A stretch of 64,000 nucleotides of DNA from NCBI GenBank assembly GCA_030619765.1, contig JAUXAU010000006.1:766-64765 (forward strand), in the 5' to 3' direction. This stretch comes from Thermoplasmatota archaeon. GTDB taxonomy: Archaea > Thermoplasmatota > E2 > DHVEG-1. Every line of letters begins with the position of its first letter. Within the stretch, counting starts at the first letter, position 1. The notes beneath the pieces are model-generated. The model saw nothing but the letters and a program-made list of their open reading frames with translations, did not search any database and was not told the origin of the DNA. Both the position numbers and the translations under genes were made by a program. Positions 26,034 to 60,474 of the stretch are shown here, one piece after another.

Positions 26034-27236
26034 ATGAAAAAAGAAATAAATAATAGACCTTTAATTCTTTTGATTTCTCCTCATTCTAAAGTTAAGTTAT
26101 CAGGATCTGTAAGCTATGGTTTTGAAAGAAGAATTTCCTATCTGGGGAGAATTGTCTCAGAGAGATATAATACAATAATAGTTGAACCAGATAATGGGTT
26201 TTCAAATCAAAAAGAACAAGAACAAAAAATTACTTTCAATAGTTTTTCATCTATTAAAGTTAGGAATTTGAGATTAGGATCATTATTTTTAGATATAAAT
26301 CCGTTTTACATTTTCAAATTAGTAAATATCCTAAAAAAGTATATTCCATCAGTAGTAATCATATCGTTTCCATTTGGAATTCCAATATCATATATAATTA
26401 TTAAGAATATTTTAAAATTAAATTCTATTTTAGTTTATAATTCACATAATGTAGAAACAGAGTACTCAAAAATTATTGCAAAAGATGAAAATTTGCCGTG
26501 GATTGCAAAATTATTTTATTGTAAATATATTTCTATTATTGAAAGATTGGCAGTATTATATTCTGACTATGTAATAGCGGTGAGTAAAGAAAATAAAAAT
26601 TGTTTTTGTAACAAATATTCTTGCAATAAAGAAAAAATTGTTGTCATAAACTTAGGAGCTAATATTCCAAAAGTTATTCCAAAGTCTACAATGCAATATA
26701 AAAAACATAAAGATGAAATATTAGCAGTATTTCATGGAACCTATAATGCTACACATAATAGGAATGCAATAAATATAATTCATTCATATCTGGCTGAAAA
26801 GCTAAAAGAAAAGAAAAGCTTGAAATTCATAGTTGCAGGAAATGGCGTTCCTATAATTGAAAAAGATAACTTTATTTCAGTAGGTTTCGTGAAAAATTTG
26901 TATGACTTTTTATCTTCATGTGATATTGCCGTTGTACCATTAGAAGAAGGGGAAGGAACAAAATTGAAACTTTTTGATTATATGGCAGTTGGTCTTCCAA
27001 TAATTACTACCAAAAAAGGGGCTGAAGGGATGGGATTAATAAATGGTGAAAACGCTATAATAACGGATCATGTAAATGAAGATTTTGTTAAGGCGATAGA
27101 AATTCTTGTCAATAAACCTCAGATGAGAAAAGAGCTTAGTCTAAATGTGAAGAAATTGATAGAAAAAGAATATCATCCAACAATAATTAAGAAGAAGATA
27201 TATACATTCTTGGACAAAATTATTTCCAAAACTTGA
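26034..27236 (+). CDS. GT4-family (GT-B, Glycos_transf_1) glycosyltransferase
   Basis: The C-terminal donor-binding block reads VVPLEEGEGTKLKLFDYMAVGLPIITTKKGAEG. Confidence 0.8.
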   Translation: MKKEINNRPLILLISPHSKVKLSGSVSYGFERRISYLGRIVSERYNTIIVEPDNGFSNQKEQEQKITFNSFSSIKVRNLRLGSLFLDINPFYIFKLVNILKKYIPSVVIISFPFGIPISYIIIKNILKLNSILVYNSHNVETEYSKIIAKDENLPWIAKLFYCKYISIIERLAVLYSDYVIAVSKENKNCFCNKYSCNKEKIVVINLGANIPKVIPKSTMQYKKHKDEILAVFHGTYNATHNRNAINIIHSYLAEKLKEKKSLKFIVAGNGVPIIEKDNFISVGFVKNLYDFLSSCDIAVVPLEEGEGTKLKLFDYMAVGLPIITTKKGAEGMGLINGENAIITDHVNEDFVKAIEILVNKPQMRKELSLNVKKLIEKEYHPTIIKKKIYTFLDKIISKT

Positions 27237-27300
27237 ATATAGTTAGTAAACAATTTCAAAAATTAAGATAAAATAAAAAGTATTTACGTCGAGTGATACT

Positions 27301-28560
27301 ATGAAAATTTGTATATTTGGATTAGGACGGATAGGGCTTCCAATTACGTTGGTTTGTGCAGATAGTGGTTACAATGTTGTCGGAGTGGATATTAATGAGA
27401 GATTGGTTAATAGTCTCAATGAAGGGAGAACGATCTTTAATGAGCCAGGTTTGAAAGAGTTGCTTACAAAGCATTTGAATAAGAATTTTTTCCCAAAACA
27501 TCAGGATGAAGATGTAGCATCAGATTTGAAGCAAGCAGAATATATTATACTTGCTGTTGGGACAGGTTTTGCGAAATACCCTGATAAACCGAATCTTTCT
27601 ACCCTCTACTCAGTCATTGGTCAACTTATAGCAACTGGTTTACGTGGTAAAACGATTATTTTGAGGGTGACGCTTCCTATAGGAACATCTGATGGCGTTA
27701 AAGACTTCATTGAGAAAAAAACAGGGCTTAAAGAGGGAAAAGATTTCTGGTTTTCGTTTGTACCTGAGCGAATTATGGAAGGAAGAGCAATTATAGAAGA
27801 ACGTGCCCTTCCAAAAATCGTTGGCACATATAATGATGATGGATTTGAAAAAGTACGTTCTTTCTTTGAAAGGGTAGGTGGCGAGATTATTCGTGTTTCA
27901 AATCCGCAGACCGCTGAGTTTATTAAACTCATCGATAATTCTTGGCGAAACACACGATTTGCATTTGCGAATGAGCTTGCATTTCTTGCAGAGGAAAATG
28001 ATATTGATGTGATGGAGGCTATTAAATCAGCAAATCTAGGGTATAAACGTAATGAAATTCCCTGTCCTGGACCAGTGAGTGGATACTGTCTTGGGAAAGA
28101 CCCTTATCTTCTAGAATTATCATTTGAGAAAGTTGCTCGACGACGAGGATTTAATTCGATGTGGTACTACGGTAGAAGGGCCAACGACTGGCTTTTCGAA
28201 AAGGTTGTCGAGGAAATTAAAGGAAAAAAGGTTTTAGTTGCCGGTCTGTCTTTCAAGGATAACATTGATGATTATCGCTTTAGTCATGGAGTAGAAATCA
28301 TTCGGAGGCTGCTCAAAAAGGGATGTAGTGTGGTTGTGTATGATCCATTTCTTGATAATAATCTTTATACGAAATTGCCTCGTGAAATTTCTGATAATGT
28401 TGTAGTTTCCCATTCCTTTGAAAAAGCACTTTCAGAGAATTTTGACACGATTATTGTCGCTACAAAACACAACGAGTTTAAAGAGGAGAGTGTAAAGAAG
28501 CTTATCAAAGAGTTACCTGATTCCGTTGAAATCATTGATTTATGGCATCTTTATTGCTAG
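27301..28560 (+). CDS. nucleotide-sugar 6-dehydrogenase (UDP-glucose/GDP-mannose dehydrogenase family; UDP-ManNAc dehydrogenase-like)
   Basis: The Rossmann N-terminus reads MKICIFGLGRIGLP. The catalytic Cys context reads GPVSGYCLGKDP. The protein has the three-domain length typical of the family. Confidence 0.85.
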   Translation: MKICIFGLGRIGLPITLVCADSGYNVVGVDINERLVNSLNEGRTIFNEPGLKELLTKHLNKNFFPKHQDEDVASDLKQAEYIILAVGTGFAKYPDKPNLSTLYSVIGQLIATGLRGKTIILRVTLPIGTSDGVKDFIEKKTGLKEGKDFWFSFVPERIMEGRAIIEERALPKIVGTYNDDGFEKVRSFFERVGGEIIRVSNPQTAEFIKLIDNSWRNTRFAFANELAFLAEENDIDVMEAIKSANLGYKRNEIPCPGPVSGYCLGKDPYLLELSFEKVARRRGFNSMWYYGRRANDWLFEKVVEEIKGKKVLVAGLSFKDNIDDYRFSHGVEIIRRLLKKGCSVVVYDPFLDNNLYTKLPREISDNVVVSHSFEKALSENFDTIIVATKHNEFKEESVKKLIKELPDSVEIIDLWHLYC

Positions 28561-30686
28561 TTCGCCAATATATTAGACTTACTACTAAACTCATAGATTT
28601 TGACTCTGGTGAGCAATTATCAGGAGGGGTATATTTGAGTAGTTTCGATTTGTGGTTTTCTAGAATTCAGAGATTGAAGAGACGTCCATCGAAAGAGGTT
28701 GTTACTTTTTGTTTTAAAGAGATTATAAAAACTCCGAATTTTATCTTAGCTTCAAAAGATAATGTTATCAACCTAAATCAGGTTATTTTAGGTTATACCG
28801 ATGAAGAAAAAGTATTGAATGAATTAAAAAAACGATGTATAAACACATTTTATTTTAATCCATTTGACACAAATTTATCAGAACTTTATAAAAAAAGGTT
28901 CCCAAAATCTTATAACAAGATATTAAAAGTAGCTGAAGAGTATGTAAATGGTGATTTTAAATTTTTAGGAAAAAAAATTCAATTTGAAAATTGGCATTCA
29001 ATCGAGGGTGTTGGATGGCCGGCAAAAGTCCCTCCGAGAAAAATTAATTATTTTGGTTCAGATAGAAAAGGCGATATAAAATATATCTGGGAACTAAATA
29101 GAATGCAATTTTTACCTCTCTTAGGTATAGCATATTTTTTGACTGATAACGAAAAATATGCCAGAAGCGTGTTATCATATATCGAATCATGGATAGATCA
29201 AAACCCATATTTTAAGGGAACAAATTGGATGGAGGGGATCGAAGCAGCTATACGTATGTATTCCTGGATTTTTGCATATCACTTTATTCTTGGTTCTAAT
29301 AGTTTAAAACCAGCTTTGAACAATAAAATTTTGAAAAGTATCTATCAACATGCAAAATTCATTAGAAATTTCAATTCTGATAAATGGATTATTAACAATA
29401 ATCATTTTATTGCTGAGCTTTCAGGTTTAATTCTTATAGGTTTATCTTTTCCTCAATTTAAAGAGTCGGGATATTGGGTAAATTTTGCTATACAGAAATT
29501 AAAAAAAGAGGTTGATAGACAGGTATTTTATGATGGTTTTTTATGGGAGCATAGTCTAGGTTATCATAAATTTGTAACTGAATTGTTATCTTTTGCAGTT
29601 ATATTATTGAAAAAAAATGGTTATCATGTTCCAAAATCTGTTTCTGATAAATTAGAGGGGATGTTTGAATGTCTTAATTTTATTTCTATGAAAAATTGCA
29701 TAATTCCTATGATTGGGGATGAAGATCAAGGAATAGTAATTAAACTAGGTTTTGAAGAATATGATGAAATATCGGACATATTGGGTATTGGAAATGTTTT
29801 ATTCGAAAGAGGTGATTTTAGACAAAAAAATGATTCTGACTTAGTATTTTGGCTCTTTAATGGAAAGAAAAAGAGTAATAGATCTACTTCGAGTATCGAA
29901 TCTTCTTTCAAGGTTTATGAGGATAGTGGATATGGATTGTTCAAAACAAAAAACGGCTATCTGCTTTTTATTACTTCAGCTCAAAAAGAAAAATACTTGC
30001 ATGCAGGGCATAGGCACCTAGATATGTTGAGTATTGTTTACGAGCAGAATGGAGAGTACTTCATCGTTGATCCAGGGACGTATACTTATTTTTCAGATGA
30101 TGCGACGAGGAACAAATTCAGGGGGATCTCCATGCATAACACTATTACAATCGATGGGAAAAATCCTGCAGATCTATCTGGATTGTTTGAACTGTATCCC
30201 AGGCCAGAAACAAAACTAGTAGATTATAGGACATACGATAAAACGATTAACTATATTTGGGCGTCACACACTGGATACAAGCCATTAATTCATAACCGGG
30301 TTATTATTCAGTTTCCAGAGGGTTTTGTCATATATGATTTTGTAAAGGGTGACTCTAAAATACATAAATTTGAAAGTTTTTTACACTTACATCCTGAAGT
30401 AAAAATTTTAAGGAAAAACGATAAAAATGTGGTCCTTAAAAATAACAATGAAATAGTATTTATTTTCTCTGATAAAAAAATCATTAAGGAAAGATCATTT
30501 TTTTCACCAAAATATGGTACAATAATGGAATCAAAAGCTTTAAAAATTGAAACACAAGATGAATGCTATGAGAATTACATATATATACTCAGCAATGAAA
30601 AATCTATGGAAAAGATGGATTCTGATTCATCAGATTTTATCAATAAGACATTGAAATTTAAAGAAATAAACTCAATTATTTTATAA
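28542..30686 (+). CDS. heparinase II/III-like protein (alpha/alpha-toroid N-domain plus beta-sandwich C-domain)
   Basis: It carries WELNRMQFLP, NWMEGIEAAIRMYSW and GHRHLDMLSI motifs, characteristic of heparinase II/III-like proteins found in surface-polysaccharide loci. It overlaps the upstream gene by 19 nt. Confidence 0.7.
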   Translation: MASLLLVRQYIRLTTKLIDFDSGEQLSGGVYLSSFDLWFSRIQRLKRRPSKEVVTFCFKEIIKTPNFILASKDNVINLNQVILGYTDEEKVLNELKKRCINTFYFNPFDTNLSELYKKRFPKSYNKILKVAEEYVNGDFKFLGKKIQFENWHSIEGVGWPAKVPPRKINYFGSDRKGDIKYIWELNRMQFLPLLGIAYFLTDNEKYARSVLSYIESWIDQNPYFKGTNWMEGIEAAIRMYSWIFAYHFILGSNSLKPALNNKILKSIYQHAKFIRNFNSDKWIINNNHFIAELSGLILIGLSFPQFKESGYWVNFAIQKLKKEVDRQVFYDGFLWEHSLGYHKFVTELLSFAVILLKKNGYHVPKSVSDKLEGMFECLNFISMKNCIIPMIGDEDQGIVIKLGFEEYDEISDILGIGNVLFERGDFRQKNDSDLVFWLFNGKKKSNRSTSSIESSFKVYEDSGYGLFKTKNGYLLFITSAQKEKYLHAGHRHLDMLSIVYEQNGEYFIVDPGTYTYFSDDATRNKFRGISMHNTITIDGKNPADLSGLFELYPRPETKLVDYRTYDKTINYIWASHTGYKPLIHNRVIIQFPEGFVIYDFVKGDSKIHKFESFLHLHPEVKILRKNDKNVVLKNNNEIVFIFSDKKIIKERSFFSPKYGTIMESKALKIETQDECYENYIYILSNEKSMEKMDSDSSDFINKTLKFKEINSIIL

Positions 30687-30731
30687 TATTAATATTATTT
30701 ACAAACTATAGAGTAAAAAGATAGAGTTCTT

Positions 30732-31712
30732 ATGAATGGGATTGATAGTCCAATATTTATCGTAGGTATACGACGTAGCGGTAGCACGCTTTGGAGAAGG
30801 ATATTAGAAAAAAATGGTGATTTAGCTGTCTATGGGGAGATGCAGTTTTTATGGCCTTGGGAAAAAGATTTCCCATTTTTTCTCCGTAAATACGTTGGAA
30901 ATTTATCAATAGATGAAAATATAAAGAGAATGGTTGATTTCATATTTTCAGATCATCCACCCAAAATAAGGCTTTTAGAATTACGTTGGGGTTTCTGGGA
31001 AACTTTAAGAAAAAACAATGATGAAGAATTGAAAGAAGCAATTATTAAAAGAATCACTGAATCTAATAGATCTATTGAAAGTGTTTTCAAAGCTATTACA
31101 GAAGAAACAACAAAACATCTTGGTTTTCAAAGATACATGATCAAATTTCCTGTTTATTTCAATCATGTTCACACACTATTAGAATGGTATCCTAAATCAA
31201 AAATTGTACATATCACAAGGGATCCAAAGGCTATTTCAATGTCTAAAAAAAATGACCCTGGTGGAACCGCTAGGTTAAAATCAAAATACCCCTATCTTAG
31301 TTATTTATTGGAAAAGGCTATGACTCTTTTCGTTGTATATCAATATAATTGGTCTGCAAGGGTTCATAACGCTTATAAAAGTAATAGCAATTATGCTCTC
31401 TTTCATTATGAAGATCTTCTTTTAGATCCTGAAAAAACAATAAAAGAATTATGCGAGTTTACAGGTTTAACCTACAATAAAGAAATGCTATTTCCTTCTA
31501 AGGGACGATTTTCAAGCATTGATGGAAAAAGAAGAAGGGGAATAGATAAAAAATCGGGCATTCGTTGGAAGAAAAAAATAACTCCTTTTGAAAAGAAATT
31601 TATCACGTTTTGTACAAAAAAAAGCATGGAAAAATTGGAATATGATCCTACAACACATCTGATATTTAGGGGAGGACAAAATACATTAAATGATACATTG
31701 AGGGGTGTTTAA
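30732..31712 (+). CDS. sulfotransferase-fold protein 1
   Basis: The 5'-PSB-like loop reads PIFIVGIRRSGSTLW. The 3'-PB-like strand reads IVHITRDPKAISMS. Confidence 0.7.
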   Translation: MNGIDSPIFIVGIRRSGSTLWRRILEKNGDLAVYGEMQFLWPWEKDFPFFLRKYVGNLSIDENIKRMVDFIFSDHPPKIRLLELRWGFWETLRKNNDEELKEAIIKRITESNRSIESVFKAITEETTKHLGFQRYMIKFPVYFNHVHTLLEWYPKSKIVHITRDPKAISMSKKNDPGGTARLKSKYPYLSYLLEKAMTLFVVYQYNWSARVHNAYKSNSNYALFHYEDLLLDPEKTIKELCEFTGLTYNKEMLFPSKGRFSSIDGKRRRGIDKKSGIRWKKKITPFEKKFITFCTKKSMEKLEYDPTTHLIFRGGQNTLNDTLRGV

Positions 31713-32817
31713 AATCAAAATAATGATGGTTGGAACCATAAAAACAAAGACCACTGGTGGAATGGCAACTCATACTCAAGAGCTTGTTGAAAATCTTAGA
31801 AATCTTAATGTAAAAATTTTTTATTATAAAACTAATCCCCATAATATTTATTTCAAGATCTTTGATTATTTTATTAAAATTAGCAAAAGAACTATTGGAT
31901 TATCAATTAAATTATTGAAAAATGCGAATAATGTTGATATTGTACATGTTCAAGCATCTGGTCCTATTGGGGGTTTTCTCCCAGCTATTACTAGTGCTTT
32001 TTGGAAAAAAATATTAAATTTTAAACTAATTGTAACTTTTCATTATTCCCAAACTGAATCTTTTTTAAAAAACTATCCAAATATTTCAAGATTTGTTTTA
32101 GAAAGAATTGATAATTTTATCGTAGTCTCTAAAAGACAAAGAGATTACATTACATCCATAATTGGAAAAAAATATTATGCTAAAATCACAGTAATTCCAA
32201 ATGGTTATAACCCTAAAAAACTGAGAGTTATTGAAAAAAGGGAAGCTAGAAACAGATTGAATTTACAATTAAATTACAAGATTATCCTTAACATCGGTCT
32301 TTTATTTGAAAAAAAAGGGCAAAAACATCTAATTAATTCCTCAAAGGAATTAATTTGCATAAAAAAATATAATGATCTTAAATGCTTTATCATCGGGCAA
32401 GGACCTCTTTTGAACCAACTACAACAACAGATTAATGAGAACAAGCTTGAAAATCATGTGAAGCTCGTTGGATTTGTATCATTGGAGGATCTTAATTTAT
32501 ATCTTAATTCAGCTGATATTTTTGTGTTACCAAGTTTACATGAAGGTAATCCTACTGTTATGTTTGAAGCATTGAGTCTTGGTTTGCCCTTTGTAGGAAC
32601 AGATGTAGGAGGAATTCCTGAGATAATCACATCAGATGTATATGGTCTACTTGTTAAACCCTCGAATTTACAACAGCTAACCGAAAAAATTATCAAGGCT
32701 CTTGAAAAAGATTGGGATACTCAAAAAATTAGAAAATACGCAGAGCAATTCGCCTGGAAAAATATTGCAAAACAAACTGTGGATGTATATGAAAAATTGG
32801 TGAACATTAGTAAGTAA
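31705..32817 (+). CDS. GT4-family glycosyltransferase
   Basis: It carries the HEGNPTVMFEALSLGLPFVGTDVGGIPEII block. The GTG start overlaps the upstream stop by 8 nt. An alternative ATG lies at 31723. Confidence 0.8.
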   Translation: MFKIKIMMVGTIKTKTTGGMATHTQELVENLRNLNVKIFYYKTNPHNIYFKIFDYFIKISKRTIGLSIKLLKNANNVDIVHVQASGPIGGFLPAITSAFWKKILNFKLIVTFHYSQTESFLKNYPNISRFVLERIDNFIVVSKRQRDYITSIIGKKYYAKITVIPNGYNPKKLRVIEKREARNRLNLQLNYKIILNIGLLFEKKGQKHLINSSKELICIKKYNDLKCFIIGQGPLLNQLQQQINENKLENHVKLVGFVSLEDLNLYLNSADIFVLPSLHEGNPTVMFEALSLGLPFVGTDVGGIPEIITSDVYGLLVKPSNLQQLTEKIIKALEKDWDTQKIRKYAEQFAWKNIAKQTVDVYEKLVNISK

Positions 32818-33046
32818 TTTAAATTTCAAATAAATAAAATTAGAATGCTTTTGGTCCTTTCAAATTTCGACGAGAAAGAAATGTCAAGTTTGCCATAAGT
32901 GATGGGTATTTATGGGAATGATTTTTTAGAAAGAGGGCAAAAAATTCCTTGGATTTACCGAAACTTGTTATGGTTGGAATAGAAGAAAAACTCCCCTTAA
33001 GTTGACAGCACCACAAATTGAACAAAAGATTAATGCTTGTGAAAAT

Positions 33047-34192
33047 ATGAATATTGTTTGGATTAGTAAGATTTCAATGGATATGCCTCATAAGACATCG
33101 CGTTTAAAAATGTCTGAGGCATTACGGAAGAGAGGACATAATGTAACTTTGTATATGGTGAAAAAAATTGGGGATAAAAAAAATTCTTCACCAAATATTG
33201 TCTTCATCCCTACAATTAACTTTCCTATTTTATCAGGTCTTTTTTTTGGATTAATCGTTTTTACTTATTTTCCTGTTATTCTCAATAGAAAACCAATTGA
33301 CATGATTATTATTGATTGTACAAAGGTTTGGCTTCCTTTTGTAATTCCCCTCAAAATATTAAATATACCCATAATATTGGATATTAGGACATTACCAATT
33401 GATTGTGAAAAATCATTTTTTTTCAGTGTATCTCTATTTTTGAGTCGATACATAATAGATGGAATTACCACAATTACTGCAGAGTTAGATAAAACGATTA
33501 GAGACGTTTATAATATAAAAAACAAAAAGATAGGTGTGTGGTCCTCTGGTGTCTCTATTGAAGATTTCAATGAAATTGACATAAACCCACATACTATCTT
33601 TGAGGTAAAAAGTAGGGAATTTGCATTAATATATCATGGAGATTACTCTCCAACAAGAGGAATAGAAAATCTAATAAAAGCTATGAGTGAGCTAAGTCCT
33701 TCTCTAAAAAAGAAAATCTTCTTGTTAATAATTGGAATGCCGACAAATAAGATAAAAGAGCTATCAATGCTAAGTGAGGAAGAAGGTGTGAAAGAACAAA
33801 TTAGAATTTTACCTAAGACAGAATATAATAAAATCACTCAATATATTAAAATTTCTGATATAGGTGTTATTCCTCTCCCGCCAGAAAATAGATGGTGGCA
33901 GGTAAGTGCTCCTTTGAAAACTTTGGAATATCTAGCTGCTGGAAAACCGGTAATAGCGACCAATATTCCTTTTCATAGAAAAATCTTTGAAAAAGGAAAT
34001 TGTGGAATTCTAATTGAGAGTAGTGATCCTAAGGTTATTGCTAAGGCAATCACTTTTTCGTATAAAAACAAAGAAGAGCTAAAAAAAAGGGGTAGCGAAG
34101 GGAGAAAAATTGTTAAGAAATTTTATACATGGGACTGTATGGCTCGGAAATTTGAAGAATTCTTAAAAACCCTTCCAAGAGTGGATATTTAA
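33047..34192 (+). CDS. GT4-like (GT-B) glycosyltransferase
   Basis: I chose the start at MNIVWISK. The C-terminal block reads APLKTLEYLAAGKPVIATNIPFHR. Confidence 0.65.
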   Translation: MNIVWISKISMDMPHKTSRLKMSEALRKRGHNVTLYMVKKIGDKKNSSPNIVFIPTINFPILSGLFFGLIVFTYFPVILNRKPIDMIIIDCTKVWLPFVIPLKILNIPIILDIRTLPIDCEKSFFFSVSLFLSRYIIDGITTITAELDKTIRDVYNIKNKKIGVWSSGVSIEDFNEIDINPHTIFEVKSREFALIYHGDYSPTRGIENLIKAMSELSPSLKKKIFLLIIGMPTNKIKELSMLSEEEGVKEQIRILPKTEYNKITQYIKISDIGVIPLPPENRWWQVSAPLKTLEYLAAGKPVIATNIPFHRKIFEKGNCGILIESSDPKVIAKAITFSYKNKEELKKRGSEGRKIVKKFYTWDCMARKFEEFLKTLPRVDI

Positions 34193-34299
34193 ATGATACC
34201 TATTTATATAATTTTTTTGAAAAGATATGTTTTAACTATAATTTGAGTATATGGTGTAGGATTTAACCTCAAAACAAAATTATTGTGGTAGTGCTAAAA

Positions 34300-37175: not shown

Positions 37176-37257
37176 TGTATTTATTTTATCAAGTTAGTTT
37201 TTATAAATATATTTAAGAGTACAGTAATATATCAAACAGAATTAGTGTGAAAAAATT

Positions 37258-38529: not shown

Positions 38530-38641
38530 AAATATAAGTCTCTATAATAAAATAATAAAAAATTTGATACTATACTAAATTTATATGAATATAGACTTAT
38601 TATTGCTAAAATTATTTAAAAATTGAAACTAGGTTTAAACG

Positions 38642-39514: not shown

Positions 39515-39625
39515 TTTGATTTCGTAATTAAAATTTTTAGAACCGTATTAGATTTATTGTAATTGAATAATGTACAATATAAGACACAATATTATTAGAA
39601 AAATGATTTAAGTGATAGGGTAATA

Positions 39626-40753: not shown

Positions 40754-41961
40754 ATATTCTATTTTTTTCTTCAAATTCACCATATTCAGAAATTAAATCA
40801 TTTAAAGGACGGATTGGTGGAGCTGAGATAAATTTACGAGTTATTGCAGAAGAGCTTGCAAATTTGGGGTATAGTACCTGCTATTATTCAACTAAAAAGG
40901 GGAAGCCTGTAAAAAAAAATGTAAATGGTGTATCCACCTACCACTTTCCAAATATTTTAATGCCAATATTTCATAAAAACCTGTCATTAATCAGAAAGTA
41001 CAATGAAAAGTTAGTGATGATTCAGCAAAAAAACCAGATTGAAAAAATCATAAAAAAGAAAAACATTGATCTCATACATACTTATTCAACATACCCGGAT
41101 ACTTTTCTATCGATTAGTGCTGCAAAGAAATCCGGCGTTCCAATTGTTCAGAGAGTTGCGGGAAGAGCATGGTATAACCTTTTAATTGAGAATCCTTCAT
41201 TGAAAAAGAAAATTGAATGGACTTTTAATGAAGTCGATATGATGTTGTTTATCTCAGATTTCATCAAGGGTAAAACTTATGATTATTTTCAAGAGTTGGG
41301 TTTTAAAGTAAATACTCCATTCGAAATAAATGACATTGGAATAAATTATAATCAACTTAAAAATATCGATTTGGAAAAGGTTAAATCTAAGTACAATCTA
41401 TCAGATGATGAAAAGATAATTTTATGTGTGGAATCATTTAAAAATTACTCAAAAAGACAAGATATATTAATCAAAGCGGTACCAAATGTTTTAGAGAAAA
41501 TTAATAATTTGAAGGTATTACTTGTAGGTAAAGGACCTAATTTTCAACGGATGAAAGATTTGGCATATGAGCTCGGGGTTCATCGAAAAATTCGTTTTTT
41601 AGGCGAGATTCCTCATAGGGATGTGTTGGCGATCATGTCAATTGCAGAAATTGTAGCTCATCCCACAGAATTTGAAGGTTATTCTACTGTTATGAGGGAG
41701 TCTTTGGCTTTAGGGAAACCATTTTTAGTTTCTGATATTGAACCTATGAATAATGTTATTAGAGACGGTTATAATGGTATGTTGGTAGAAAATAATCCAA
41801 TAAAATTTGCAGAAAAAATTGTTTATCTTCTTAAAAATAATAAAATAAGGAAATCTATTGAAAAAAATGCTGCTACATATGCGAAAAAAAATTTTGATTC
41901 TAAAAAAAACGTTCTGAAATATGAAAAACTTTTTTTAGAAATTTGCCATAAAAACAAATGA
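40750..41961 (+). CDS. GT4-family glycosyltransferase
   Basis: It carries the PTEFEGYSTVMRESLALGKPFLVSD block and shares an ATGA overlap with the upstream gene. Confidence 0.8.
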   Translation: MNILFFSSNSPYSEIKSFKGRIGGAEINLRVIAEELANLGYSTCYYSTKKGKPVKKNVNGVSTYHFPNILMPIFHKNLSLIRKYNEKLVMIQQKNQIEKIIKKKNIDLIHTYSTYPDTFLSISAAKKSGVPIVQRVAGRAWYNLLIENPSLKKKIEWTFNEVDMMLFISDFIKGKTYDYFQELGFKVNTPFEINDIGINYNQLKNIDLEKVKSKYNLSDDEKIILCVESFKNYSKRQDILIKAVPNVLEKINNLKVLLVGKGPNFQRMKDLAYELGVHRKIRFLGEIPHRDVLAIMSIAEIVAHPTEFEGYSTVMRESLALGKPFLVSDIEPMNNVIRDGYNGMLVENNPIKFAEKIVYLLKNNKIRKSIEKNAATYAKKNFDSKKNVLKYEKLFLEICHKNK

Positions 41962-42247
41962 AGAATTAAGTTGAAAAGAAATTGATATTGTTCTGACCGA
42001 TTGGATTAGGTTCTTTTACTGCTAATACTATTTTGTATATTGATGAAGTATATGTTTTCCTGAATTGTTATTGTATGTTTTTCAATTTTTTTATCAAGAG
42101 TCATAATCGCTAGATAGTGGATGAATTGTCTGGAGAATAAAGATTCGGGAAAAGGTGTTTTTCTTTACGAAAAGAAAGGTTTCGACATTTATCTCCTGGA
42201 AAAGGTAACCTACTCTTTCTATTGTTACAATTAAAAAAGAAGGATCC

Positions 42248-43528
42248 ATGAATAAATATAAAGATATCGTCAAATTGCTTATGCCATCAAAAAAAATGTT
42301 GAGAGGACTAAAAAATGCTTCATATTTAAATATTGGAAAATTTTTGTCAATGGTTATTAACTTTTTCGGATTCGTTTACATTGCAAGATTATTGGGTCCT
42401 AGTGGCTATGGAATTTATGTAACCGTAGGTGCTTTTGTTGGACTATTCAGTATTATTACTTTCGGTGGACTAAATAAGGTTGTATTACGGGAAGGATCAA
42501 AAGACTTAGATCAGATGGAGAGGTATTTTGAAAAAATCATGGGTATAAAAATTCTTTTTACTTTCATTTCTATTAATATTTGCATAATTACTTCCGCTGT
42601 TCTGCCTTATACATTACAAGAGAAATTATACATAATAATTTTTTCATTTACTTTAATATATACTTCTTTTAATGGTTTTTTTGGAACTATTTATATCGCT
42701 GCTGAAAAAATGCAGTATAACGCAGCACTATATATCTTGGACAGGATTTTGTTTGTTGCCCTTGCAATTGCTTTTTTATCTATGGGATTAGGAATTTTGA
42801 CGTTAATTACCATAACTCTTTTTTCACATTTTTTTACTCTTATACTTAATTATAGACTAACTAAAAGATTTTTGAGTTTTAAATTCTTTAATAAAATAAA
42901 GTGGGATAAGGCTATATTGGGATCTTCATTAATTTTTAGTATATTATCTTTTACAGTTTTATTATCAACCAGAATAGATTTGGTAATGATATCTTGGTTA
43001 GGTTCCTCGGAAGATGTAGGTATTTACGGTGTGGCCTATCAAATAATTCATGCCTTTGGGAGTGTTAGAAATTTATTGGCTACTGCATTTTTTCCAATAT
43101 CTGTGAAAATGTTTCGTAAACATATCGTTAGCTGGAAAAAACTTTTAAAATATGCTTTTTTACTAAGTTCCGGAATTTTATTACTAGGTGTTGTGGGATC
43201 TATCTATTCTGAGCAAGGTATTACATTATTATTTGGAGCAGAATATTCTGAGTCTGGTGTGATATTATCTGTTTTGATTTTCTACCTGGCTTTTAGTTTT
43301 TTTACCATACCATTTTCAATTACTCTTCAGGCAACACATAATGAAAGAATGAACTTAAAGCTTTGTTGGATTGGCCCTACTTTGAACATTGGTCTGAATT
43401 ATATATTTTTTAACATTTTTGGACTTATAGGTATAGCTTATTCAACATTGGTCGTTGGTTTAATTAGGGTTCCGATTTTCGTTTTCTTTACTTGGAGAAC
43501 ACTTAAAAAACAGAATAAGATAATATAA
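42248..43528 (+). CDS. wzx: MOP-superfamily polysaccharide flippase (Wzx-like)
   Basis: 426 aa with about 12 TM segments. The Wzx-like N-terminus reads LKNASYLNIGKFLSMVINFFGFVYIARLLGPSGYG. Confidence 0.7.
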   Translation: MNKYKDIVKLLMPSKKMLRGLKNASYLNIGKFLSMVINFFGFVYIARLLGPSGYGIYVTVGAFVGLFSIITFGGLNKVVLREGSKDLDQMERYFEKIMGIKILFTFISINICIITSAVLPYTLQEKLYIIIFSFTLIYTSFNGFFGTIYIAAEKMQYNAALYILDRILFVALAIAFLSMGLGILTLITITLFSHFFTLILNYRLTKRFLSFKFFNKIKWDKAILGSSLIFSILSFTVLLSTRIDLVMISWLGSSEDVGIYGVAYQIIHAFGSVRNLLATAFFPISVKMFRKHIVSWKKLLKYAFLLSSGILLLGVVGSIYSEQGITLLFGAEYSESGVILSVLIFYLAFSFFTIPFSITLQATHNERMNLKLCWIGPTLNIGLNYIFFNIFGLIGIAYSTLVVGLIRVPIFVFFTWRTLKKQNKII

Positions 43529-43675: not shown

Positions 43676-45034
43676 ATGATACCATTGAATAATTCAATCT
43701 TTAAGTCATTTATTGCTCTTGATTTTATAAGGAAAAAACGATTTGCCTTTTTTAAAACGCTTCAAAAGCTAAAATATTCTCAGTATTATCCAGAAGATAA
43801 ACTCAAAGAAATTCAAATTAGGAAATTAAAACAATTAGTGCAATATTCTTATGAGAATGTTCCATATTATCATCGATTATTCAAACAAAATGGTGTCCAT
43901 CCAAATGATATAAAATCTCTTGAAGATTTGAAGAAGATTCCAGTTCTTACAAAGAAGAAAATTCAAAATAACATGGATAAAATGATATCCATAAAAAAGA
44001 GCAGAAATAATTTACTTAAAAATTATACAGGTGGATCAACCGGAAAACCTTTAACTTTTTATCAATGCTACAATTATCTAAACTATGCCCAAGCAGGAAA
44101 AATTCTTGCTTGGTATATTATCCCAGGATTTGATTACGGAACTCGAACAGCATTGTTATGGTCAGCACATAGAGACATAAGAAGTAATCAATCTTTACTC
44201 TATCAAATAAAAAAATATTTAGATGGTACAGTTACTATGAATGCAAATAAAATAAATGATATAAAATTGGAAATTTTCATCAAATACATTGATAAATTTA
44301 AACCTTTTATTCTCAGAGGATACCCTTCTATACTATGTTATCTTGCAAAATATATTGACAAACATCAAATAGATATCCCAGATATTTCTTGTGTAATTAC
44401 AACAGCAGAAGTACTACATGAAGATCAGAGGGAAAAACTCGCAAAGGTATTTAAATGTCACATATTAAATTCCTATGGCTGCAGAGAAGTTAGTCAAATA
44501 GCTATGGAATGCCCCAAGCACAATGGATTACATGTAATGATGGAAAATCAAATCGTAGAACTATTGGATACAAATGAAGATGTCGTCCCAACCGAGATAG
44601 GTTCTGTTGTTGTCACAAATCTCAATAATTATGGTATGCCATTCATTCGATATGAAGTTGAAGATATGGCTCGACGATCTTCGATCGATAAATGCGGGTG
44701 TAATAGAGGTTTATCTTTGATAGATAACATTATTGGTAGAGAAAAAGGTTTTATTATTACGCCTAATGGAAATAATATATACTTTGGATATTTTGAAATG
44801 AAATTTTATGGGTTTCCTGGTGTTGAAGAATATCAAGTAATTCAGGAAGAATTAGATAAAATTGTGATTTTAGTAGTTGGAGATATTGACCGTTCTAAAG
44901 ATAAAATGGAAGAATTAAGGAAAGAGATGATGACTGAACTAGGAGAGCATATTCAAATAGAGGTTGAATATGTTGATCAGATAAAAAGATCTGACACAGG
45001 TAAATATCAAAGAGTAATTTCAAAAGTACATTAA
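43676..45034 (+). CDS. adenylate-forming ligase of the PaaK / coenzyme F390 synthetase / CapK type
   Basis: The AMP-binding P-loop-like motif reads YTGGSTGKPLTF. The length and C-terminal small domain fit the family, with the motif GKYQRVIS near the end. Confidence 0.7.
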   Translation: MIPLNNSIFKSFIALDFIRKKRFAFFKTLQKLKYSQYYPEDKLKEIQIRKLKQLVQYSYENVPYYHRLFKQNGVHPNDIKSLEDLKKIPVLTKKKIQNNMDKMISIKKSRNNLLKNYTGGSTGKPLTFYQCYNYLNYAQAGKILAWYIIPGFDYGTRTALLWSAHRDIRSNQSLLYQIKKYLDGTVTMNANKINDIKLEIFIKYIDKFKPFILRGYPSILCYLAKYIDKHQIDIPDISCVITTAEVLHEDQREKLAKVFKCHILNSYGCREVSQIAMECPKHNGLHVMMENQIVELLDTNEDVVPTEIGSVVVTNLNNYGMPFIRYEVEDMARRSSIDKCGCNRGLSLIDNIIGREKGFIITPNGNNIYFGYFEMKFYGFPGVEEYQVIQEELDKIVILVVGDIDRSKDKMEELRKEMMTELGEHIQIEVEYVDQIKRSDTGKYQRVISKVH

Positions 45035-45071
45035 ATATATGTTATAGTATTGTTTCTTCGTAAAGTGAGGT

Positions 45072-45242
45072 ATGATGGTAATGAATTATTTAAATCAAAT
45101 TAACAAAAAAGAAATAAGGATGAATAATGTTGACTCCGATAATCCTTTGAATATAATAATTACAGGTGATTTTTCTCCTATAAACAGAATAGAGGTTTTA
45201 TGCAAAAATAAAAGCTATTGTACCGGATACCCCCACCTTTAG
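45072..45242 (+). pseudogene. 56-codon ORF, possibly the N-terminal remnant of a larger gene (MMVMNYLNQINKKEIRMNNVDSDNPLNIIITGDFSPINRIEVLCKNKSYCTGYPHL*)
   Basis: It sits in a 280-bp gap inside an otherwise tightly packed locus. NIIITGDFSP resembles the first metal-binding strand of CapA/metallophosphoesterase-type proteins. The frame terminates early. Confidence 0.2.
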
Positions 45243-45314
45243 ATGGATTTATTTTGGGAGGATGTCATGATATAGAGCAAATATTTTTTAAATCATTGTA
45301 TGTTTCTCCTATAG

Positions 45315-46226: not shown

Positions 46227-46303
46227 AGATGTTGTTCTACTTGTGTTATTTAAGCTAGATATACCAAAACATTTAATAAAAACTATTTTATTGATTTCAA
46301 ATC

Positions 46304-46960
46304 ATGGTATATTATAAAGGGAGTTTTATTAGGGCACCTATTTGCTGGAGGATTAGAGAGCTTGTTCAGGCTGTTCTAAAAAAACTTAATTTTAGTATGT
46401 CATATGATAAAACAATGGATCTCTTTCAAAGAAAAGGATTAATAATAGGTAAAAATGTCCATATTGAGAGAAATGTAAAAATTGATGACAATTTTTGTCA
46501 TTTAATAAGAATCGGAGATAACTGCCGTATTACTAGAGGTGTTACAATACTTGCTCATGATGGATCAATGCATCATGCTACTGGGGGTTATGGAACAGCA
46601 GGAATAGTAGATATTAAAGAAAATTGCATTATAGGTGTAAATGCAATTATACTTCCGGGGGTAACAATAGGCCCAAATGTTCTTGTAGCAGCTGGTTCCG
46701 TTGTTAATAAGGATATTCCACCCGATTCATGTGTTGCAGGTGTCCCAGCAAGGTATTATGGAAGCTTTAGTGATTTTATATCCAATTTTAAAGAAAAAAT
46801 CGAAAGTAGCTATGTATTTCCACAACTCCAAGCTATAAGCGATTATGAAGAATTTAAAAAAGAAAAGGAAAAAATGATAAAGGAAGCAGAAAAAGGAGAA
46901 ATTATTTACAAAATCATAAAACCAAGGGTTATTTCAAAAAAGATGGATAATAAAAAATAA
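46304..46960 (+). CDS. left-handed beta-helix (hexapeptide-repeat) O-acetyltransferase
   Basis: The hexapeptide region reads IGVNAIILPGVTIGPNVLVAAGSVVNKDIPPDSCVAGVPARY. Confidence 0.75.
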   Translation: MVYYKGSFIRAPICWRIRELVQAVLKKLNFSMSYDKTMDLFQRKGLIIGKNVHIERNVKIDDNFCHLIRIGDNCRITRGVTILAHDGSMHHATGGYGTAGIVDIKENCIIGVNAIILPGVTIGPNVLVAAGSVVNKDIPPDSCVAGVPARYYGSFSDFISNFKEKIESSYVFPQLQAISDYEEFKKEKEKMIKEAEKGEIIYKIIKPRVISKKMDNKK

Positions 46961-47048
46961 TTACTTTCCACTTAACTTAGAGTATTTATTTTAATATCCA
47001 ATATCAAAAGAGCAGCCAATCGATAAGAAAAGATACCAGGTTGAATAA

Positions 47049-48044
47049 ATGGAATCGGAATTATCGCTTGATAGCCTGAGAATAAATTGCACGGAAGTAT
47101 CTGAAGAAATACAGAAATTTGTAAGACATACAGTTTTTAATGAATTAAAGAAAAAAGGAGTTGTAATTGGAATATCAGGAGGGATAGACAGTAGTGTGAC
47201 CGCTGCTATCTGTGTTAATGCTCTTGGTAAGGAGAGGGTGTTTGGTATTCTTATGCCAGAAAAGGAATCCTCTGAAGATACCTTGGAGTTGAGCAGGATT
47301 GTAACCGACTTCTTTGGAATTGATAATGTTTTGGAGGATATTACCCAAATTCTTGATTCTACAGGTTGTTATCAGCGGAGAAATAAGACGATAAAAAAAA
47401 TTATTCCAGAGTATGCAGACGAATGGAAGTTTAAGATTGTACTTCCTAGCCTCTTGGATTCAGATACATATCGTTTTTTCTCTCTTGTGGCAAAGTCACC
47501 TGATGGGAAAATCGTAAAAAAACGATTAAACCATACAACTTATTTAGAGATATTATCAGCTACAAATTTTAAACAAAGAGTCAGAAAGATGGTTGAATAT
47601 TACCATGCTGATAGACTCAATTATGCTGATGTTGGCACTCCTAACAGGTTGGAATATGATCAAGGTTTCTTTGTGAAAAATGGAGATGGAGCTGCGGATA
47701 TAAAACCTATTGCCCATTTGTATAAAACACAGATTTATCAACTTGCAGAATTCTATAAGATACCTGAGATTATTGTGAATCATCCTCCCACCACTGACAC
47801 GTATTCTATGCCTCAAAGTCAGGAGGAATTCTATTTCTCATTACCATATGATATCATGGATTTCTGCCTCTATTGTTACAATAACGATATAAGCCCTGAG
47901 AGGGCATCTAAGGCGATCGGTTTAGACGTTGATCAAGTAGAGAGGATATATAGTGATATTAAAAACAAGAGGCGTTCAACTATGTATCTTCATTTATCCC
48001 CTCAACTGGTGCAACCGGTATTTACCAGTTTAAAAATGAAATAA
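47049..48044 (+). CDS. PP-loop ATP pyrophosphatase of the NAD+ synthetase (NadE) family
   Basis: The PP-loop reads VVIGISGGIDSSVTAAI (SGGxDS). The NadE-like layout is present, including DRLNYADVGTPNRLEYDQGFFVKNGDGAADIKPI. Confidence 0.65.
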   Translation: MESELSLDSLRINCTEVSEEIQKFVRHTVFNELKKKGVVIGISGGIDSSVTAAICVNALGKERVFGILMPEKESSEDTLELSRIVTDFFGIDNVLEDITQILDSTGCYQRRNKTIKKIIPEYADEWKFKIVLPSLLDSDTYRFFSLVAKSPDGKIVKKRLNHTTYLEILSATNFKQRVRKMVEYYHADRLNYADVGTPNRLEYDQGFFVKNGDGAADIKPIAHLYKTQIYQLAEFYKIPEIIVNHPPTTDTYSMPQSQEEFYFSLPYDIMDFCLYCYNNDISPERASKAIGLDVDQVERIYSDIKNKRRSTMYLHLSPQLVQPVFTSLKMK

Positions 48045-48097
48045 GTATAAAAAAGTTTAAATATTCTATTAGTTTTTATTAAAAGGAGAAGACGGCA

Positions 48098-48955
48098 ATG
48101 AAATTTAGGATAAAATTTTTAATCGGGTTAATTATTGTTATTGCAATGGCTACTGTTGTACTTGGGTATGGTTCTTTTTTTTCTAAATGGTTTTCTCAAG
48201 GAGATTCTTCTCCTGTATTAAAAAATCCAGGTTTAGGAAATGGTACAAAAATTATTTTTCTTCACCATAGCACAGGGAGACACATATGGGATGGAGGTGT
48301 CAATGAGTGGTTTAAAGAGTATAATCAAACAAATAAAGTTAATTATTCTATTATAGAACAAAGTTTCCCGAAATCGAAACCTTATGGATGGAATAATTAT
48401 CCTTTTGATTATTGGAACATTTGGGTAAATCATGCTGGTGAAGAACCATTTAAAGAAGAACCGACTTTAGAAATGATTACGAAGAAATATGATGTTGTAA
48501 TATTGAAACATTGTTATCCAGTGGCAGACATCAAAGAGGATACTGGAGAACCTGATGTTAATTCTGATATTAAACGTTTGGAGAATTATAAGGTTCAATA
48601 TGAGGCTTTGAAGGAAAAAATGAAAGAGTTCAATCAGACAAAATTTATAGTGTGGACGATCGCTGCTTTGGTGGAAAAATCGACAAATGAGGAAATGGCA
48701 TCTAAAGCGAAAGAATTTTATAATTGGGTAAAGGATGAATGGGATGAGAAAGGTGATAATATCTTTCTTTGGGATTTTTATGAGCTTGAAACAGAAGGAG
48801 GTTTGTATTTGAAGAATGAATATGCAAAAAACCTGGAGAATTCTCACCCAAGTATAGCCTTTTCAGAAACTGTTGCGCCTTATTTTTGTCAAAGAATTGT
48901 AGATGTTATTGAAGGTAAAGGCGATACCTCAAACATTACAGGAAGGATAATTTGA
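48098..48955 (+). CDS. secreted/anchored protein of unknown function
   Basis: An AAGGAG RBS and a signal-anchor (MKFRIKFLIGLIIVIAMATVVLG) are present. The motif order IIFLHHSTGRHIW ... VVILKHCYP ... FIVWTIAALV loosely parallels CDS 6866..7987. Confidence 0.45.
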   Translation: MKFRIKFLIGLIIVIAMATVVLGYGSFFSKWFSQGDSSPVLKNPGLGNGTKIIFLHHSTGRHIWDGGVNEWFKEYNQTNKVNYSIIEQSFPKSKPYGWNNYPFDYWNIWVNHAGEEPFKEEPTLEMITKKYDVVILKHCYPVADIKEDTGEPDVNSDIKRLENYKVQYEALKEKMKEFNQTKFIVWTIAALVEKSTNEEMASKAKEFYNWVKDEWDEKGDNIFLWDFYELETEGGLYLKNEYAKNLENSHPSIAFSETVAPYFCQRIVDVIEGKGDTSNITGRII

Positions 48956-60457: not shown

Positions 60458-60474
60458 TTCATACGCCTCATGGG

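Follow-up and report, generated by a model that had tools for sequence, protein, structure and literature searches.

A hypervariable surface-glycan island upstream of archaeal nadE and its probable sulfated allele

What does a run of co-directional glycan genes make when three sulfotransferases are scattered along it, and is its pathway of a new kind? The question is raised by positions 26034-48955 of a 64-kb stretch (64,000 nt, referred to as the window) of contig JAUXAU010000006.1 from a Thermoplasmatota archaeon. A first-pass annotation had predicted from this locus a sulfated, uronic-acid-containing surface glycan in the form of a glycosaminoglycan-like polymer. Taking the whole explanation together, we consider it fairly probable that the region is a sulfated allele of a hypervariable surface-glycan island situated upstream of the NAD+ synthase gene nadE, and that it works through a proposed pathway in which the glycan is sulfated in the cytoplasm. 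The three sulfotransferases (ST1 to ST3) are of the type that uses 3′-phosphoadenosine 5′-phosphosulfate (PAPS):

30732-31712, plus strand: ST1, soluble PAPS-type sulfotransferase, left variable cassette; Pfam Sulfotransfer_3 (PF13469), 88.1 bits
38642-39514, plus strand: ST2, soluble PAPS-type sulfotransferase, central cassette; Pfam Sulfotransfer_3 (PF13469), 99.8 bits
45315-46226, plus strand: ST3, soluble PAPS-type sulfotransferase, right cassette; Pfam Sulfotransfer_1 (PF00685), 26.7 bits

The prediction had been made to depend on matches to sulfotransferase profiles, and all three proteins score above the Pfam gathering cut-offs (27 bits for PF13469 and 22 bits for PF00685). Because the score of ST3 is weak, its family was searched and profiled further. 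We found 1543 relatives among 1.8 billion representative proteins; a profile of 50 sequences gave PDB matches to sulfotransferases only and aligned with the ST2 family at an HHalign probability of 99% (E = 5e-18). The ST1 profile also aligned with the ST2 family (HHalign 99%) and matched TPST1 (1.5e-8) and the CurM sulfotransferase in the PDB, and the ST2 profile matched TPST1/2 at 7.6e-13. As judged from these comparisons, ST1 to ST3 belong to the PAPS-dependent sulfotransferase superfamily.

The six sequence motifs on which the first-pass annotation had relied were all found as written. The 5′-phosphosulfate-binding (5′-PSB) loops read GIRRSGST in ST1, GCGRSGTT in ST2 and STGRTGTK in ST3, with R, G and T(S) invariant in the family alignments. 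The 3′-phosphate-binding (3′-PB) segments (RDPKAISMS in ST1, RDGRAVAFS in ST2, RNGKDYVRS in ST3) align with the same segment in TPST1 and SULTs, and their Arg and Ser are invariant as well (R163/S171, R156/S164 and R147/S155, respectively). Further invariant residues bring the sets to R15, G17, S18, E36, R163 and S171 in the ST1 family, GxxRSGT, S66-E67 and RDGRxVxxS in the ST2 family, and G51, R52, T55, H73, E74, R147 and S155 in the ST3 family. E36 of ST1 and E67 of ST2 lie 21 residues past the 5′-PSB Arg and in the alignments fall on the GEE motif of TPST1, at a position that we take, from the TPST2 structure, to be that of the TPST catalytic Glu; ST3 carries the invariant His-Glu pair (H73-E74) at this place. 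No archaeal PAPS-type sulfotransferase has been characterised (PMC11625862), and our literature searches returned no link between sulfotransferases and Thermoplasmatota, Thermoprofundales or Asgard archaea.

The context of these genes becomes clear when the locus is compared with related metagenomic loci (denoted L001 to L093 below). The glycosyltransferases of family GT4, the membrane proteins, the right flank and one gene remnant of the window are as follows:

26034-27236, plus strand: GT4 no. 1; Pfam Glyco_trans_1_4 and Glyco_transf_4
31705-32817, plus strand: GT4 no. 2, its start overlapping ST1 by 8 nt; Pfam, 134 bits
33002-34192, plus strand: GT4 no. 3, scaffold gene; Pfam; 58-77% identical in L001, L084, L087, L091 and L092
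34285-35931, plus strand: polytopic membrane protein of 548 aa, scaffold gene, orphan family; may be a transferase of GT-C type or a polymerase like Wzy; no family match
39626-40753, plus strand: GT4 no. 4, scaffold gene and constant partner of the M14-like gene described below; Pfam
40750-41961, plus strand: GT4 no. 5; Pfam, 121.9 bits; ortholog in L001 only
42248-43528, plus strand: Wzx/AglR-type flippase, scaffold gene; Pfam Polysacc_synt (PF01943), 100.7 bits
45072-45242, plus strand: remnant open reading frame (ORF) of 56 aa, cassette-junction scar; 41% identical over 46 aa to a 79-aa ORF of L001
47049-48044, plus strand: NAD+ synthase NadE, right flank, outside the pathway; NF002048, 488.4 bits against a cut-off of 313, residues 3-324 of 331

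A scaffold of GT4–polytopic–[cassette]–GT4–Wzx–[cassette]–nadE recurs in related loci, and gene order is kept at 50-70% identity in the independent metagenomic loci L001, L084, L086 and L087. Orthologues of ST2 in metagenomes are 51-78% identical. L001, with an ST2 of 58% identity, reads GT4–DH–Hep–ST–GT4–GT4–polytopic–M14–ST–GT4–GT4–Wzx–CapK–[IS]–ST–LbH–NadE (DH, nucleotide-sugar dehydrogenase; Hep, heparinase-like protein; IS, insertion sequence; LbH, left-handed beta-helix acetyltransferase), and L084, L086 and L087 have the common core Hep–ST–GT4–GT4–polytopic–AP–M14–ST–GT4–Wzx (AP, alkaline phosphatase superfamily) with different distal genes. The flippase is 59-65% identical across alleles. 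The right flank is more constant: nadE keeps 82-85% identity in L084, L091 and L093, against 50-70% for island genes, some of which are absent or replaced there. This gene had been listed among the tailoring enzymes of the locus as a PP-loop enzyme, a reading that has to be given up in favour of a full-length housekeeping nadE. A uronamide-forming role for it was considered and rejected on the same grounds, namely full-length NadE identity and a place at the right border that stays the same while the island content changes.

In the sister alleles L091, L092 and L093 the scaffold is kept and sulfotransferases are absent; their cassettes instead hold carbamoyl-, amido-, methyl-, pyruvyl- and acetyltransferase and deacetylase genes. 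L091 reads GT4–polytopic–M14–GT4–Wzx ... NadE, the last 85% identical to that of the window. A carbamoyltransferase, two AsnB-type amidotransferases, a deacetylase and methyltransferases are encoded in L092, and L093 has a 2-epimerase, a dehydrogenase, an (alpha/alpha)6 protein, a different AP-like protein and methyl- and pyruvyltransferases, together with a NadE of 82% identity. ST1, ST2 and ST3 are thus assigned to three separate variable cassettes of a mosaic island and, since the scaffold is kept while the tailoring genes are swapped in related loci, the window would be the allele of this hypervariable archaeal island that makes a sulfated surface glycan.

L086 gives a closer view of this exchange. 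Over window positions 28542-43528 its successive genes are 99, 99, 97, 95, 78 (polytopic), 90, 91, 93, 85 and 62% (Wzx) identical; the 95-99% stretch comprises Hep–ST1–GT4–GT4, and gene content beyond Wzx is unrelated. Such a gradient points to recombination within the island that took place recently among strains of a single species, and the drop in identity has the pattern of a recombining surface antigen. The remnant at 45072-45242 and the 79-aa ORF of L001 share the motif I.I.GDFSP, and each appears to be what is left of the N-terminus of a lost gene; in L001 (16121-18571) an IS element (rve, DDE_Tnp_1) comes after it. The window remnant marks a recombination scar between the cassettes of ST3 and of the CapK-like ligase.

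Within 26034-48955 the ORF scan gave 18 co-directional plus-strand ORFs of at least 140 aa and one gene remnant. The first-pass annotation had described twenty consecutive plus-strand genes; the co-directional run is there and the count is lower. A total of twenty requires either that small ORFs, for instance the 56-aa remnant, be counted in or that two plus-strand genes upstream be added, at 23991-24983 (GT2) and at 25428-25883. The overlaps that it listed were reproduced exactly (4 nt at both 35928 and 40750, 19 nt at 28542, 8 nt at 31705), and the remaining intergenic gaps are 45-290 nt. The GC content is about 30% over the locus and 34% for the whole window. Every gene family that had been named was recovered by Pfam (five GT4, dehydrogenase, heparinase II/III N- and C-terminal domains, sulfatase superfamily, M14, Wzx, PaaK/CapK, hexapeptide and NAD_synthase). 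A scan for transmembrane segments and signal sequences found neither in ST1 to ST3 or in the Hep-, AP-, M14- and CapK-like proteins. These proteins are soluble, which fits tailoring in the cytoplasm before Wzx acts, and the set of five GT4s, Wzx, nucleotide-sugar dehydrogenase and tailoring enzymes free of export signals supports a predicted biosynthetic function of the locus.

Two overlapping genes bear on the predicted uronic acid of the glycan:

27301-28560, plus strand: nucleoside diphosphate (NDP)-sugar 6-dehydrogenase (uronic-acid former); TIGR03026, 301.9 bits, above cut-off
28542-30686, plus strand: heparinase III (PL12)-like protein, candidate uronyl C5-epimerase or lyase; Pfam N- and C-terminal domains

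The dehydrogenase belongs to the family of uronic-acid formers, as had been proposed, and within it resembles UDP-ManNAc more than UDP-Glc dehydrogenases: among NCBIfam models, UDPMaNacDH_Arch scored 207 bits and the UDP-Glc dehydrogenase AglM 128 bits. In the sister allele L093 the dehydrogenase is paired with a UDP-GlcNAc 2-epimerase. Given the ManNAc-type score and this pairing, the uronic acid is more likely an N-acetyl-hexosaminuronic acid than glucuronic acid.

The Hep-like protein has the N-terminal toroid (PF16889, 125 bits) and the C-terminal beta-sandwich (PF07940, 112 bits) of its family. It matched PDB 4MMH at 8.6e-19 as a single sequence and at 2.5e-23 as a profile, and matches to 4MMH, 4FNV and 5JMD ranged from E 1e-15 to 1e-23; scores against the NCBIfam HepC equivalogs were 75-83 bits, far under the cut-offs of 600-700. 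PL12 lyases that act on exogenous heparan sulfate are secreted or periplasmic; the Hep-like protein is free of a hydrophobic N-terminal segment and is encoded among biosynthetic genes. Its gene overlaps that of the dehydrogenase by 19 nt. The slot beside the dehydrogenase is taken by an (alpha/alpha)6 protein in L089, L092 and L093, with faint C5-epim_C matches in L089 and L093, and by the Hep-like protein in the window. The human glucuronic acid C5-epimerase DS-epi1 has this lyase fold with conserved catalytic residues (PMC8006597). Missing export signal, gene overlap, slot occupancy in the sister alleles and the fold of DS-epi1 together favour a uronyl C5-epimerase as the most plausible role of the Hep-like protein, with a lyase as the alternative. 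No sequence link to DS-epi1 or Glce was detected, even at E <= 10, and the literature search gave nothing directly relevant on heparinase II/III-like genes inside biosynthetic clusters.

Four further genes would act in tailoring:

35928-37175, plus strand: AP-superfamily (sulfatase-like) protein, soluble, central cassette; Pfam Sulfatase (PF00884), 46.6 bits, C-terminal part only
37258-38529, plus strand: zinc amidase of M14D type, like cytosolic carboxypeptidases (CCP), central cassette; Pfam Peptidase_M14
43676-45034, plus strand: PaaK/CapK-family adenylate-forming ligase, right cassette; Pfam AMP-binding
46304-46960, plus strand: left-handed beta-helix acetyltransferase; Pfam Hexapep, NCBIfam sugar/O-acetyltransferase families

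In the ortholog alignment the AP-like protein has Thr in the nucleophile position and no CxPxR motif. Its C-terminal half alone matched S1 sulfatases in the PDB (8DI0 at 4.7e-8, 6HHM at 1.1e-7). The second of these is the closest structural match reported for VNG1057C/Agl31, which together with Agl30 represents the only archaeal glycan sulfotransferases shown experimentally, both of AP fold (PMC11980604). By this analogy a sulfuryl-transfer role is conceivable for the AP-like protein. The gene is absent in L001 and L091. A 22-aa remnant of the window type stands directly after the polytopic gene in L092 (11646-11711). AP-superfamily genes recur in the islands in non-orthologous forms, such as a 532-aa Phosphodiest protein at L087 8309-9907 and a different 415-aa sulfatase/phosphodiesterase-like protein at L093 4273-5520.

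The M14-like family is very small (44 clusters among 5.8 billion), and H186, E189, H277 and an NPDG motif (N225-G228) are invariant in its alignment. The AlphaFold2 (AF2) model is of high confidence (pLDDT 94), and Foldseek aligned it over its full length with 4B6Z, 3K2K and 4A37 (E about 1e-22, TM-score 0.69-0.78; 0.67-0.78 with 3L2N included), followed by CCP5. The modelled protein fits the M14D CCP-like class in its zinc site, in the NPDG motif and in the joining of a beta-sandwich domain at the N-terminus to the carboxypeptidase domain. We considered and rejected a pairing of this protein with ST2 in the manner of an N-deacetylase/N-sulfotransferase (NDST), as in L089, L090 and L091 GT4 no. 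4 directly follows the M14-like gene and there is no sulfotransferase. It follows ST2 in L001, L084, L086 and L087, and the constant partners of the M14-like gene are GT4 no. 4 and the uronic-acid dehydrogenase, not ST2. The CapK-like ligase matches NCBIfam PaaK and F390-synthetase families at 92-139 bits, and its L001 ortholog has CapK_C; the literature search found nothing on CapK function.

Upstream of the locus lie genes that may serve the first step of assembly:

20516-21466, plus strand: GT2 like AglJ and dolichyl-phosphate (Dol-P)-hexose synthases, two C-terminal transmembrane segments, candidate lipid-carrier glycosyltransferase; Glycos_transf_2, 92.8 bits
21622-23196, minus strand: membrane protein of the archaeal DUF1616 family, its gene flanked by both GT2 genes; Pfam PF07760, 236.5 bits
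23991-24983, plus strand: second AglJ-like GT2, two C-terminal transmembrane segments, first gene of the plus-strand run, possible initiating Dol-P glycosyltransferase; Pfam, NCBIfam and transmembrane scan
25428-25883, plus strand: ORF upstream of 26034

The two GT2s score 119.7 and 119.8 bits against AglJ (TIGR04182), under the equivalog cut-off of 325, and, taken with the Wzx-like flippase, they give the region Dol-P glycosyltransferase-like and flippase components of agl type. DUF1616 also adjoins a related M14–GT4 module in L090.

We propose the following course of assembly. An oligosaccharide linked to dolichyl phosphate would be built on the cytoplasmic face of the membrane, where an AglJ-like GT2 may start it and the five GT4s would extend it. 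The NDP-sugar 6-dehydrogenase would supply at least one hexuronic acid, probably N-acetyl-hexosaminuronic acid. While the glycan is still cytoplasmic, the three soluble PAPS-dependent sulfotransferases would O-sulfate up to three positions, and it could be tailored further by the hexapeptide acetyltransferase, the CCP-like zinc amidase, the AP-fold enzyme and the CapK/PaaK-type ligase, the last by activating a carboxylate for amide or ester decoration. The cytoplasmic heparinase-III-fold protein would most plausibly epimerise the uronic acid at C5. The finished unit would then be flipped by Wzx and, on the outside, the orphan polytopic protein would add a residue (GT-C-like) or polymerise (Wzy-like); alternatively, an AglB encoded elsewhere would move the unit onto surface proteins. 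A bolder version, which we regard as unlikely, would see here a prokaryotic cytoplasmic counterpart of glycosaminoglycan maturation, with a heparinase-III-fold C5-epimerase, three PAPS sulfotransferases and possibly a fourth, Agl30/31-like sulfuryl enzyme of AP fold acting on a dolichol-linked uronic-acid glycan.

The first-pass annotation had pointed out that PAPS-synthesis genes are missing from the window, which holds for the scanned ORFs, none of which has an ATP-sulfurylase or adenosine 5′-phosphosulfate (APS)-kinase domain. In most metagenome-assembled genomes (MAGs) of Thermoprofundales the route from sulfate through APS to PAPS is encoded and CysH/CysJI are missing (PMC6461988). If the host resembles Thermoprofundales, PAPS made as a sulfuryl donor and not reduced would fit the locus. 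Signs of an archaeal host are DUF1616 and the AglJ-like GT2s upstream. The best match to a species-representative genome is a Thermoplasmatota EX4484-6 MAG, whose locus has GT4s, Wzx and a related polytopic protein besides two sulfotransferases, and a dehydrogenase fragment of at least 90% identity carries the label 'Thermoplasmatales archaeon'. By these comparisons Thermoplasmatota is the likely lineage.

Several observations weigh against the proposed sulfated allele or against parts of its pathway, and four rival explanations have to be judged by them. Among solved structures, those closest to ST1 and ST2 belong to sulfotransferases of protein tyrosines and polyketides (TPSTs and CurM), not of carbohydrates, and the assignment of glycans as their predicted substrate class is drawn from genomic context. 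No carbohydrate-sulfotransferase equivalog of NCBIfam was matched by the locus proteins. It could be argued from this that the enzymes act on protein tyrosines, in the manner of TPST or RaxST, or on a lipid or small molecule, and that their location in the island is incidental. We hold this to be very unlikely, as each sulfotransferase gene stands between glycosyltransferase or tailoring genes on one strand, ST1 overlapping a GT4 by 8 nt; the placement is kept in L001, L084, L086 and L087; matching cassette positions in the sister alleles hold other glycan-tailoring genes; and the glycan sulfotransferases of the xss cluster are themselves PF13469 and PF00685 enzymes (PMC8205485). The domain scans found neither a PAPS-synthesis gene (sat/cysC) nor a 3′-phosphoadenosine 5′-phosphate (PAP) phosphatase gene (cysQ) in the 64-kb window. 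Lineage labels also conflict: those of contigs with related island genes (P0135, P0155, P0196, P0207 and P0370) name Thermoplasmatales, Euryarchaeota, Promethearchaeota and, once, Atribacterota, and the Promethearchaeota label also stands on a contig with a nadE of 85% identity. Probably some bins are contaminated, or the island moves between lineages; with such labels, carrying the Thermoprofundales PAPS pattern over to this host is an assumption. A glycan left unsulfated, with sulfotransferase genes inactive in vivo for want of PAPS or as recently gained, unexpressed cassettes, would agree with these points, with the dispensability of the cassettes (close relatives are without them) and with the IS element and gene remnant at the ST3 cassette junction. 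It appears quite improbable all the same: none of the three ORFs is disrupted, in related Thermoplasmatota from sediment PAPS synthesis is encoded but PAPS reduction is not (PMC6461988), and the predicted catalytic and PAPS-binding residues are invariant in orthologues at 50-99% identity, which implies purifying selection.

Other points on the same side concern the product. The sequence matches of the Hep-like protein are lyases only, and its co-occurrence with sulfatase-like and peptidase-like proteins might suggest a catabolic locus that degrades imported sulfated glycosaminoglycans or proteoglycans. This we find hardly credible, given that none of the three proteins has a signal peptide or transmembrane segment, that the AP-like protein is without the CxPxR formylglycine motif, that their genes are interleaved with five GT4s, the dehydrogenase, Wzx and three sulfotransferases, and that Pfam revealed no transporter or glycoside hydrolase in the locus. 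Among the scanned window ORFs there is no initiating phosphoglycosyltransferase (WbaP/WecA), AglB/STT3, recognisable Wzy or chain-length regulator. The polytopic protein, with about 11 hydrophobic segments, matched no Pfam or NCBIfam family; its own family is small (46 homologue clusters among 5.8 billion), and many of its members share contigs with M14-like ones. Its AF2 model, from a 32-sequence alignment, is of low confidence (pLDDT 62.6), and on this model the top Foldseek matches were the GT-C enzymes STT3, PglB and AftA, all non-significant at E >= 0.14, with no match to Wzy, WaaL or SEDS. A glycosaminoglycan-like polymer was therefore more than the locus supports, whereas a sulfated uronic-acid surface glycan is still the most reasonable prediction from three sulfotransferases among glycosyltransferases. 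A product in the form of an N-linked or lipid-linked oligosaccharide is no less likely than a polymer. In the explicit form of that alternative, to which we give a little less than an even chance, the enzymology is the same and the product is a short, agl-type oligosaccharide; the polytopic protein would be an AglS-like GT-C that adds a Dol-P-activated sugar outside, and AglB encoded elsewhere would transfer the unit to protein. It competes with the polymer only and leaves the core explanation intact. An archaeal host with two AglJ/Dol-P-hexose-synthase-like GT2 genes just upstream speaks for it, as do the lack of polysaccharide co-polymerase and outer-membrane export (PCP/OPX) components or a recognisable Wzy in the locus, the GT-C enzymes at the top of the Foldseek list, and giant beta-helix/PKD surface proteins nearby in the window and beside related modules in L089 and L090. 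Wzx and AglR belong to the same family. The missing AglB/STT3 domain and the low confidence of the GT-C matches count against it, and so does the divergence of the polytopic protein, the scaffold gene that differs most between near-identical strains (78% vs 95-99% for its left neighbours). High divergence is typical of Wzy polymerases. On the supporting side, the sole characterised archaeal sulfated glycan is an N-glycan (PMC11980604).

Outside the locus, genes for very large surface proteins of the beta-helix type (NosD/Beta_helix), which here also have PKD and cohesin domains, lie near the glycan genes at 54267-60484 (minus strand), and others occur at L089 6177-9794 and L090 5586-11099; they are possible glycoprotein targets. 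One more gene of the plus-strand run follows nadE:

48098-48955, plus strand: 285-aa protein with one N-terminal transmembrane segment; no Pfam or NCBIfam match; possible island gene

Beyond it, positions 49193-53197 (minus strand) encode a B12-binding radical SAM protein and a second NDP-sugar dehydrogenase, unusually long at 553 aa and with a hydrophobic N-terminal segment, which could be part of a separate pathway for a glycan or lipid. The gene at 4263-6626 (minus strand) codes for a C25 peptidase of gingipain-like type that has a propeptide and PKD domains; Thermoprofundales (MBG-D) MAGs are reported to encode C25 peptidases (PMC6461988). Also on the minus strand, a pair of HEPN and MNT-type nucleotidyltransferase genes at 12400-13374 and a lone second nucleotidyltransferase gene at 15350-15919 are probably toxin-antitoxin modules. 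A DDE transposase gene (DDE_Tnp_1; 61433-62596, plus strand) is found near the window end, and no tRNA or Rfam family was detected within the 64 kb.

Experimental evidence for archaeal glycan sulfation comes from one haloarchaeon and from AP-fold enzymes (PMC11980604). The locus described here offers a conserved, context-rich set of three uncharacterised candidate archaeal glycan sulfotransferases of the PAPS type. Together with sister alleles that naturally carry none, these define testable enzymes that could be used in expression studies or in engineering sulfated glycans. They would also provide a possible use for the PAPS that sediment Thermoplasmatota seemingly make but cannot reduce (PMC6461988). 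The comparison indicates that uncultured sediment archaea vary their surface glycans cassette by cassette beside a fixed flank, as bacteria do with O-antigens, and nadE could anchor the finding of further alleles. Three components deserve attention in their own right: the orphan polytopic family, the CCP-like amidase paired with a GT4, and the cytoplasmic heparinase-III-fold protein. Were the unlikely counterpart of glycosaminoglycan maturation true, the last would be the first biosynthetic lyase-fold epimerase outside eukaryotes, and archaea would use two unrelated sulfotransferase folds in glycan sulfation.

How does the locus compare with known systems? The claim that it does not correspond to a described pathway was too strong. 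Synechan and marine bacterial capsules are made by Wzx/Wzy clusters with dedicated PF00685/PF13469 sulfotransferases (PMC8205485, PMC11641403, PMC11766843), and for archaea the genetics of glycan sulfation have been worked out in Halobacterium, where AP-fold enzymes carry it out (PMC11980604). Sulfation of a lipid-linked glycan ahead of flipping has precedents in both: in the synechan model the lipid-linked repeat unit is sulfated in the cytoplasm before flipping (PMC8205485), and in Halobacterium a DolP-bound tetrasaccharide is sulfated before flipping (PMC11980604). The synechan locus (xss, Synechocystis sp. PCC 6803) resembles the window in being a single locus with many glycosyltransferases, Wzx and PF00685/PF13469 sulfotransferases. 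It is bacterial, however, with clear Wzy/PCP/OPX, two sulfotransferases and no uronic-acid dehydrogenase, whereas the window is archaeal and combines three sulfotransferases with heparinase-III-fold, CCP-like M14, AP-fold and orphan polytopic proteins and no PCP/OPX.

The agl cluster of Halobacterium salinarum shares with the window an archaeal host, a sulfated uronic-acid surface glycan (predicted for the window) and an AP-superfamily protein (PMC11980604, PMC12624080), the AP/sulfatase-like core being present in the ORF at 35928 (PF00884, 46.6 bits, C-terminal part). That cluster (AglM ... Agl30, Agl31, Agl32 ... AglB) also codes for a C5-epimerase, but Agl32 belongs to the AglQ/(alpha/alpha)6 family and not to the heparinase III family. 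Agl30 and Agl31 have the AP/sulfatase fold, whereas ST1 to ST3 of the window are of the P-loop PAPS type, and AglB lies inside the Halobacterium cluster and not in the window. The agl pathway of Haloferax volcanii (AglJ, AglM, AglR, AglS and AglB) involves no sulfation. It is like the window in its AglJ-like Dol-P glycosyltransferase, nucleotide-sugar dehydrogenase, Wzx-like flippase and a polytopic protein that in the window is possibly AglS-like; the window genes are not orthologues of the Haloferax agl genes, as their NCBIfam equivalog scores are far under the cut-offs. Orthology to an already characterised cluster had been named as a point on which the prediction could fail. No NCBIfam equivalog threshold of a characterised glycan-pathway enzyme was reached, so that the locus is not orthologous to a characterised cluster.

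Eukaryotic glycosaminoglycan maturation, with DS-epi1/Glce and the Golgi sulfotransferases, likewise combines a uronic acid, a lyase-fold enzyme and several PAPS sulfotransferases (PMC8006597). It takes place in the Golgi lumen on a polymer, whereas the predicted setting in the window is the cytoplasm and a lipid-linked unit. The organisation of the island has a further parallel. Bacterial O-antigen and capsule loci also have a conserved flank, a scaffold with swapped cassettes, a fall in identity at the polymerase and flippase, and IS elements or remnants at junctions; the differences are the archaeal lineage, the flank gene (nadE) and the orphan polytopic family. The locus is real and coherent and, rather than a categorically new system, it is of a kind already described, found here in a little-studied lineage.

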